DNA of 64,000 nucleotides from Escherichia coli. Its GTDB lineage: Bacteria > Pseudomonadota > Gammaproteobacteria > Enterobacterales > Enterobacteriaceae. The notes below the pieces were generated by a model. It searched no databases and was not told the DNA's origin. It worked only from the letters and a program-made list of their open reading frames with translations. Both the position numbers and the translations under genes were made by a program. Location of the stretch: NCBI RefSeq assembly GCF_030013205.1, contig NZ_CP122648.1. One strand, written 5' to 3'. Below are positions 3,801-5,529 of this stretch, in pieces (the stretch's first letter is position 1; each line of letters begins with the position of its first letter).

Positions 3801-5529
3801 TATCAAAAAGTGCATGTAGCAAAGTGAGATGTGCCGTAGACGCATCAGCATTGACATTAATTGATGTGCTAAGCGTGGAGCTACCATTTTCCAGACTGGC
3901 CTCAACGGTATCTGGTCTCGCTCCTGATTCTATCGAGGAGCGGGTATTGGTATAAGTGACGGTAGCCTTACCCTGTTCGTTCGTTACGGCTTGGCCGCCA
4001 TTCGTCATTTCGGCAGAGTTTGTTCTGCTGGTGAAGTTCACAGTCACACCTTTCACCGGAAAGCCATTATTATCAACGACTGTGGCGGTAATGACGCTGC
4101 CGGTGCTGTTCTGCGGGGTACCGGCGAATATGCTGTCTGGGACAGGCGTCAACTCGATAATTTTTGCCGCCGCTGTGTCGCCAATAAAATGCACAGTTTT
4201 GTTGTCGCTGGCACCAGTATTAGCCAGTGATGCAGTAACAGTCTGCTCACCAAAGGCAACGCCTGCGAGAGTGGCCTGCGCGATGCCAGACTCATTGGTA
4301 TTACTTTCCCCTGGGGTCAGGGTGAGGCCTGAAGAAGCTGTGCTGAATGTTACCGGAAGATTGTTCACCTCATTGTCGAACTGATCTTTGACCGTTGCAG
4401 TTAGCGTTGCGCTATCGACGCCATTACCTGTTATCTCATTTTTTGATATCTGCAGGACAACCTGAGCCGAGGTTTTGTCCGCCACAAACGTTACCGGCTG
4501 CGAATCACTGGTATTGTTATTACTCAGCGTTACGGTAACCGTATGCGTGCCCGCTTTTTTGCCTTTGAGGGTGACATGCGCTTCGCCATTGGCCTGAGTG
4601 ATGGCAATACCGTTATTTTCGAGGGTAAAGTTTGCCGCAACGTCCTGTGGCATGGTGAAGTTCACGGTTATTCCCGCCACCGGATGATTCGACGGATCTT
4701 TCACCGTTGCCGTCAGCTGCACGCTGTCGCTGTTATTCGTCACCACCTGTTGAGCAGGGATATTCAGCGTGACCTGCGCGTTGCTGGCATCGGGCGCAAT
4801 ATTGACTGTCTTCGTATCGTTGTTGCCGTTAGGCAGTGTGGCTTCGGCTGTATGAACACCCAAAACCGTGCCCTTAAGGGTAACTTCAGCAACACCACTG
4901 TCGTTTGTATTGCTCGTGCTCTGACTAAGTTGTGTATCAGCCGGGTTAGTACTAAAGGTGACCGGTAGATCTATTACTACGTTATCAAAAGGATCTTTCA
5001 CTGTTGCTGTCAGCGTTGTCTCATCCACGCCATTCCCAATGATTTCCGCTTTCGAGGTTTGCAGAACGACAACTGCGCTGTCCTTATCCGCCACGAATGT
5101 GACTGGCTGCGCATCGCTGGCATTATTGTTACCCAGCGTTGCGGTAACCGTATGCGTGCCCGCTTTTTTACCTTTGAGCGTGACATGCGCTTCCCCATTG
5201 GCCTGAGTGATGGCAATACCGTTATTTTCGAGGGTAAAGTTTGCCGCAACGTCCTGTGGCATGGTGAAGTTCACCGTTATTCCCGCCACCGGATGATTCG
5301 ACGGATCTTTCACCGTTGCCGTCAGCTGCACGCTGTCGCTGTTATTCGTCACCACCTGTTGAGCAGGGATGTTCAGGGTGACCTGCGCGTTGCTGGTATC
5401 GGGCGCAATATTGACTGTCTTCGTATCTCTATTGCCGTTACCCGCAGTTAAGCGGCGTAGTTTAATTCCCATCCCGCATAAAATTTGTCTGTCATTTATT
5501 TCTTCTCCACTTCTCTTCTTCGTAGCCAT
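825..5529 (-). pseudogene. yeeJ: yeeJ-like adhesin with bacterial Ig-like repeats; frameshifted and lacking an N-terminal export domain
   Basis: Two overlapping ORFs (3577-5604 and 825-3602) in different frames; ATG for MATKKRSGEE at 5529; the translation is almost entirely ~100-aa Ig-like repeats with no signal peptide or beta-barrel. Confidence 0.7.

Follow-up and report, generated by a model that had tools for sequence, protein, structure and literature searches.

A 609-bp repeat in a decayed Escherichia coli yeeJ gene as the probable remainder of the two-unit Ig-domain array of the long yeeJ allele

Identity of the locus and anatomy of the repeat

The stretch analyzed here, called the window throughout, is 64,000 nucleotides of Escherichia coli DNA (NCBI RefSeq assembly GCF_030013205.1, contig NZ_CP122648.1), and it carries a remnant of the inverse-autotransporter (type Ve) adhesin gene yeeJ. 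An initial annotation, made from the sequence letters alone, had noticed within this gene a direct repeat of roughly 609 bp and had taken it for a tandem duplication of immunoglobulin (Ig)-like domains. Very probably this repeat is what survives, 1.5 units, of an old tandem array of two units that the long yeeJ allele (UMN026-type, 2660 amino acids, aa) has in its passenger region. The repeat is already known as part of that published long variant; what we add is its exact anatomy in the window and finer evolutionary detail. Whole-window numbering is used, and the locus is read on the minus strand.

A nucleotide repeat scan and a self-comparison of positions 600-6000 at all offsets found a single direct-repeat family. 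The repeat finder paired 4475-4774 with 5084-5383 (spacing 609, 94% identity), and in the all-offset scan the offset of 609 gave 99 matches in 100 while every other offset gave at most 72 in 100, the level of ordinary Ig-domain paralogy (roughly 70%). The near-identical copies occupy 4527-4831 and 5136-5440: over 305 nt, 609 bp apart, they have 11 mismatches (96.4% identity), and thus the repeat described in the initial annotation is real and was accurately placed. To the left identity is lost gradually (4350-4526 against 4959-5135, about 60-80%), while to the right it ends abruptly at 4831/5440. Tandem Repeats Finder reported no repeat here, as it handles periods of up to 500 nt and this one is 609 bp.

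We mapped the domains of the intact long allele from its translation and Pfam Big_1 matches, assigning residues 932-1035 to B0, 1036-1133 to A1, 1134-1238 to B1, 1239-1336 to A2, 1337-1441 to B2 and 1442-1541 to A3. A1-B1 and A2-B2 are two complete units of 203 aa (609 bp), each made of an A-type domain of 98 aa and a B-type domain of 105 aa, and in this allele 57 of the 609 nt are different between the two units, 31 of them in the 91 nt of the A core. In the window, with all domains on the minus strand, unit 1 comprises only the last 10 codons of A1 (NGNRDTKTVN, 5410-5439), the sole remainder of its first half, and the 105-aa Big_1 domain B1 (5095-5409), which is supported by Pfam and translation. 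Unit 2 is complete and consists, by translation, of A2 (98 aa, 4801-5094), whose core is diagnostic of the long allele, and B2 (105 aa, 4486-4800); beyond it lies A3 (4186-4485), a more diverged A-type domain whose divergence explains the weaker similarity at offset 609 to the left of 4527. Near-identical copy 1 therefore covers most of B2 and the last 31 nt of A2, and copy 2 covers most of B1 and the last 31 nt of A1. The claim of two consecutive two-domain Ig-like units stands as regards the period, which equals two Big_1 domains, but the window has no complete second copy. Two open reading frames (ORFs) on the plus strand, 4543-4968 and 5059-5451, do exist and mirror each other as had been said, with 88 of 96 residues in common over the repeated part. 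Both sit on the repeat, so this partial likeness is a trivial consequence of it, and neither ORF is supported as a gene. A search of solved-structure sequences with one unit returned only a weak match to intimin (6tpl, E = 6e-6), and an NCBIfam search returned only sub-threshold intimin and IatC matches, nothing beyond the Pfam result.

The assignment of the locus to yeeJ, made in the initial annotation, is borne out by position, by RefSeq annotation and by identity to an intact allele. Window 403-5440 is 99.88% identical to positions 501-5537 of L002, the locus of an intact 2660-aa YeeJ in strain M7424 whose product is annotated as "inverse autotransporter adhesin-like protein YeeJ", and window 5439-6100 matches positions 8815-9476 of the same locus; the window copy is collinear with the intact gene except for one 3279-bp gap and one extra base. 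The remnant of the long 2660-aa allele spans 825-5529 on the minus strand (1567 codons once the frameshift is removed), and RefSeq annotates 825-5400 on that strand as a frameshifted Ig-like pseudogene without an N-terminus. On one side is a family-9 glycosyltransferase gene disrupted by IS1 and on the other tRNA-Asn and mtfA. This is the position of yeeJ, between the asnT/mtfA and family-9 glycosyltransferase/shiA genes, and it is anchored by asnT (5842-5917, minus strand), the conserved upstream neighbor. Pfam finds Big_1 in the two ORFs of the window with E = 3.5e-90 and 1.5e-99, together with Invasin_D3 arrays, while the Invasin_D4 match is weak (23.7 bits, under the cut-off of 27). The locus thus has, as a pseudogene, the Big_1/Invasin_D3 array with a C-terminal invasin-D4/lectin-like end that is expected of a yeeJ ortholog. 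At the repeat site the M7424 locus is 906 nt longer than a K-12-like one (L003), and the window follows the longer form collinearly through B2, A2 and B1, the part N-terminal of the deletion junction being absent, so that it carries the extra fragment of the UMN026 type. The window is 100% identical to chromosomes of pig E. coli, namely K_EC180 from Korea and a series of enterotoxigenic E. coli (ETEC) strains from Belgium.

Age and homogenization of the units

To place the two units in time, we compared unit 1 with unit 2 in four diverged long alleles (M7424, O157:H7 H2495, 300033 and ST361), which differ by 4-7% overall. At 33 sites, all of them within unit positions 12, 117-202 (the A core), 276 and 576-609 (the B tail), unit 1 and unit 2 are fixed for different bases. 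As the same fixed differences occur in diverged strains, the two units are older than the divergence of the strains, and they appear to be old paralogs. The initial annotation's suggestion that recombination between repeats had generated the duplication, if taken to mean an event in this strain, does not agree with these data, since both units are already in the long alleles of all four and are orthologous between diverged strains, and the 57 differences in 609 nt are not those of a recent strain-specific event.

Between unit positions 277 and 575 the four alleles have no fixed difference at all despite many polymorphic sites, and B1 and B2 differ at only 7-14 of 270 nt. At four polymorphic sites one allele has a private base in both of its units (three of the four within 277-575), and at several other polymorphic sites the states are swapped between units. 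We suggest that a tract of about 300-370 nt, from the 3' end of A through the body of B, would be kept alike by intragenic exchange, either gene conversion or unequal crossover; such an exchange-homogenized tract would explain why one half of the unit is near-identical and the other diverged. The site patterns rule out a recent duplication, simple purifying selection seems insufficient to produce them, and the B body appears to have been homogenized by gene conversion.

Copy-number variation among alleles

Two yeeJ variants, those of MG1655 and UMN026, have been described as 906 bp apart, a difference of three Big domains of repeated sequence; the two length variants were alike in biofilm assays, and many strains have a truncated yeeJ (Martinez-Gil et al. 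2017, Sci Rep 7:11326, PMC5595812). A complete yeeJ was reported in 35% of 126 genomes (Goh et al. 2019, PMC6714894). Comparing repeat copy number among strains, as the initial annotation had proposed, we found two-unit, one-unit and chimeric states. In the one-unit alleles, AR_0077 (2457 aa) and NT1F31 (2465 aa), the A core is of the unit-1 type, and the 3' end of A and the B tail are of the unit-2 type; this is what an unequal crossover in register, with loss of exactly 609 bp, would be expected to yield. Instead of such a unit, the K-12-type allele (2358 aa) contains a single 104-aa domain, residues 1036-1139, which is A-type up to a shared 24-nt stretch encoding LTATVKDP and B-type after it. 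A chimeric A/B domain of this kind accounts for the 906-bp difference of the K-12-type allele, and the domain in the K-12 reference YeeJ appears to have arisen by deletion across the 24-nt motif. Both the one-unit and the K-12 alleles thus look like deletion derivatives, and the initial annotation's general view that repeats of this kind are prone to recombination holds at yeeJ, as AR_0077, NT1F31 and the 906-bp-shorter chimeric allele show.

We also considered the reverse polarity, with the K-12 allele ancestral and the long allele derived from it by a 906-bp duplication. This was rejected, as within the long allele at most about 83 of 150 nt match at offsets 903-921, so that similarity at offset 906 is not strong, and the K-12 domain is itself an A/B chimera.

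Of 5426 complete genomes, 1277 have the A-type domain at full length, and in about 1600 the chimeric fragment alone is found. Among 60 whole-gene matches taken as a spread sample, about 11 were long alleles in one piece, about 20 were of the K-12 type and about 23 were remnants of about 2.4 kb; no three-unit allele was found in this sample, although no systematic search for one was made. The 2.4-kb remnants, among them those of UM146 and 55989, have lost 4.6 kb reaching from the Ig array to within the beta-barrel region, and a second, smaller deletion, with a 30-nt overlap of its flanks, lies between Ig repeats; the UM146 remnant (L011) matches positions 1308-2942, 3225-3700 and 8299-8630 of the M7424 locus. 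The alleles of 300033 (L007, 2668 aa) and NT1F31 (L009) are each 8 aa longer than their two-unit and one-unit counterparts, and therefore another small insertion or deletion should be present elsewhere in the gene.

N-terminal deletion and decay of the gene

The right-hand edge of the repeat at 5440 is a deletion junction and not the end of the repeat, for in the intact gene the similarity runs on through the A domain. The junction lies at 5439/5440, exactly where near-identical copy 2 ends, and reads ...TATTGCCGTTA|CCCGCAGTTAAGC..., the parental sequences having only TA in common. Computed with this 2-nt overlap, the loss is 3279 bp, in frame, or 1093 codons (residues 31-1123 of the long allele), and the protein alignment gap is likewise 1093 residues. 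The deletion fuses the first 30 codons of yeeJ, MATKKRSGEEINDRQILCGMGIKLRRLTAG (5440-5529, minus strand), to the A1 tail. Gone with the deleted segment are the hydrophobic core of the signal peptide (ICLVTQLAFPMAAAA), the LysM region, the IAT_beta barrel and about six Ig domains. The remnant therefore lacks both a complete signal peptide and the periplasmic LysM region, the latter judged by the loss of everything to residue 1123. Pfam finds no IAT_beta (PF11924) in either ORF of the window, and in the intact M7424 protein this domain occupies residues 144-419, inside the deleted part.

The gene has a second lesion, an extra A at 3675 (CCGTTA to CCAGTTA) that shifts the frame, so that the conceptual product is frameshifted after about 618 codons and the remnant is split into ORFs 3577-5604 and 825-3602. 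This base is in neither the intact alleles nor the sister strain ETEC4075. Because ETEC4075 has the deletion without the extra A, the frameshift should be later than the deletion, an order that we infer from these genomes. Without a signal peptide, without a barrel and frameshifted, the yeeJ of the window appears to be dead, and the repeat would have no present function here.

The junction occurs in exactly 9 of the 5426 complete genomes, all of them from pigs in Korea and Belgium. The gene is decaying in this pig ETEC lineage, with a further IS2 insertion in ETEC4068, which lies within the yeeJ remnant (L015 1439-2667). In ETEC4070 a second IS1 is found beside the remnant (L014 518-1215).

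The initial annotation had attributed the adjacent N-terminal deletion to the repeats themselves. This attribution does not hold: the endpoints are the signal-peptide codons and the A1 tail, with only TA in common, and it is the deletion that truncates the repeat. With 2 nt of homology and one of its ends in signal-peptide codons, which are not repetitive, the event is one of illegitimate recombination and not mediated by Ig repeats.

In two unrelated strains the N-terminal region has been deleted independently, and there too the signal-peptide codons are joined to the A/B Ig array. In GDSC2227PM (L013 3419/3420) the endpoint GGGTA| is identical to that in the window, with 4 nt of microhomology, and the deletion is out of frame; in 1218KP (L012, about 3228) the endpoint is 55 nt from that of the window. 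Common ancestry of the GDSC2227PM deletion with that of the window was considered and rejected, as the Ig region of this strain matches the window-type allele at only about 90% identity, the single nucleotide polymorphisms in the flanks differ, and the deletion is a singleton. The recurrent GGGTA| endpoint could point to a hot spot for deletion, or be coincidental. We would advance only tentatively, and with some doubt, the notion that the sharply bounded concerted evolution over about 300 nt, the chimeric K-12 domain and the recurrent GGGTA| endpoint are jointly new, and then only as descriptive points on the microevolution of yeeJ.

Alternative explanations

The initial reading, if taken to mean a recent tandem duplication in this strain through recombination between Ig repeats, by the same process that made the N-terminal deletion, has some appeal in that identity is 96.4% with a spacing of a whole number of domain lengths, and repeat-mediated changes of length are known at the yeeJ locus. 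It is nevertheless very unlikely: the O157:H7, ST361, 300033 and M7424 alleles share this pair of units and its 33 fixed differences, neither unit is missing from the intact, near-identical allele of EC581 and M7424, and the deletion endpoints in signal-peptide codons and A1 tail have no more than TA in common. Selection is a somewhat better candidate, though still an improbable one, for the near-identity of B1 and B2: outside the tail the two proteins are almost identical, and constraint on the protein is plausible. Purifying selection on the protein, however, would not equalize synonymous sites. About 31 of the 91 nt of the adjacent A core distinguish the units, whereas in the B body units are no further apart than strains are. 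Nor is there saturated synonymous divergence between B1 and B2, with their 7-14 differences in 270 nt, and neither the private bases common to both units of one allele nor the sites with swapped states would be expected from such selection.

The initial annotation had also pointed to repeats of this kind as a source of assembly error, and mis-assembly of repetitive adhesin genes has a precedent in upaH (PMC5595812). An artefact in which mis-assembled Ig-domain DNA produced either the repeat number or the deletion seems to us the least credible of these explanations: nine complete genomes from two countries have the identical junction and repeat, the two-unit array is found in over a thousand complete genomes, and the junction links non-homologous sequence, whereas collapse of a repeat would join homologous positions. 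Three points do weigh against our own preference for an old, homogenized two-unit array. The number of units in this particular assembly rests on agreement with other assemblies, gene conversion is deduced from the site patterns of only four alleles, and population-level recombination between alleles could add to the mosaic.

Related systems and significance

The UMN026-type long yeeJ resembles the window copy in its locus (asnT to the family-9 glycosyltransferase gene) and in its extra repeated Big domains, but the window copy has lost residues 31-1123 including the beta-barrel and is frameshifted, and is thus a remnant and not a functional adhesin. The yeeJ of K-12 MG1655 (2358 aa) is orthologous and about 96% identical outside the repeat, but with its one chimeric A/B domain in place of A1-B1-A2-B2 it has no near-identical 609-bp repeat, its best internal similarity being 105 of 150 nt. 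The Big_1/Invasin_D3 arrays of intimin and invasin (type Ve passengers) belong to the same Pfam families as YeeJ, although they are distant in sequence, YeeJ has many more domains, and the paired A/B unit is specific to the long yeeJ allele. Repeat adhesins of variable length whose arrays are shaped by unequal crossover and gene conversion, such as UpaH and Ag43 of E. coli (general background and PMC5595812), are like yeeJ in gaining and losing whole modules in frame and in having homogenized tracts between neighboring repeats; unlike them, yeeJ shows only states of one unit, two units or a chimera, and not a long and highly variable array.

Significance is limited: the length polymorphism is already on record for this known adhesin, whose gene is a pseudogene in this genome. 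In practice, the locus can be annotated as a remnant of long-allele yeeJ whose sharp boundary is a deletion junction, with no mis-assembly flag. The allelic series of two units, one unit and a chimeric domain illustrates in-frame length change in adhesins built of Ig domains. In the type Ve adhesins intimin, invasin and FdeC, Big_1 domains form an extended stalk that presents a C-terminal lectin-like domain, and gain or loss of whole domains changes the reach of the adhesin. In intact YeeJ, the A and B domains would likewise make up a stalk that carries the lectin-like C-terminal tip outward.

Other features near the locus

The window begins within an IS1 element that interrupts the gene for the family-9 glycosyltransferase, downstream of yeeJ (window 1-347 and 405-563). 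The same IS1 insertion is found in EC581, a relative with an intact yeeJ, and the insertion should therefore be older than the yeeJ deletion. On the other side, a prophage-like block extends from window 7026-10779 and beyond, adjoining tRNA-Ser (6909-6998), and contains a frameshifted tyrosine integrase gene, a DUF4224 gene, a gene for an 813-aa exonuclease, a DUF1482 gene split by IS1, and dicB.
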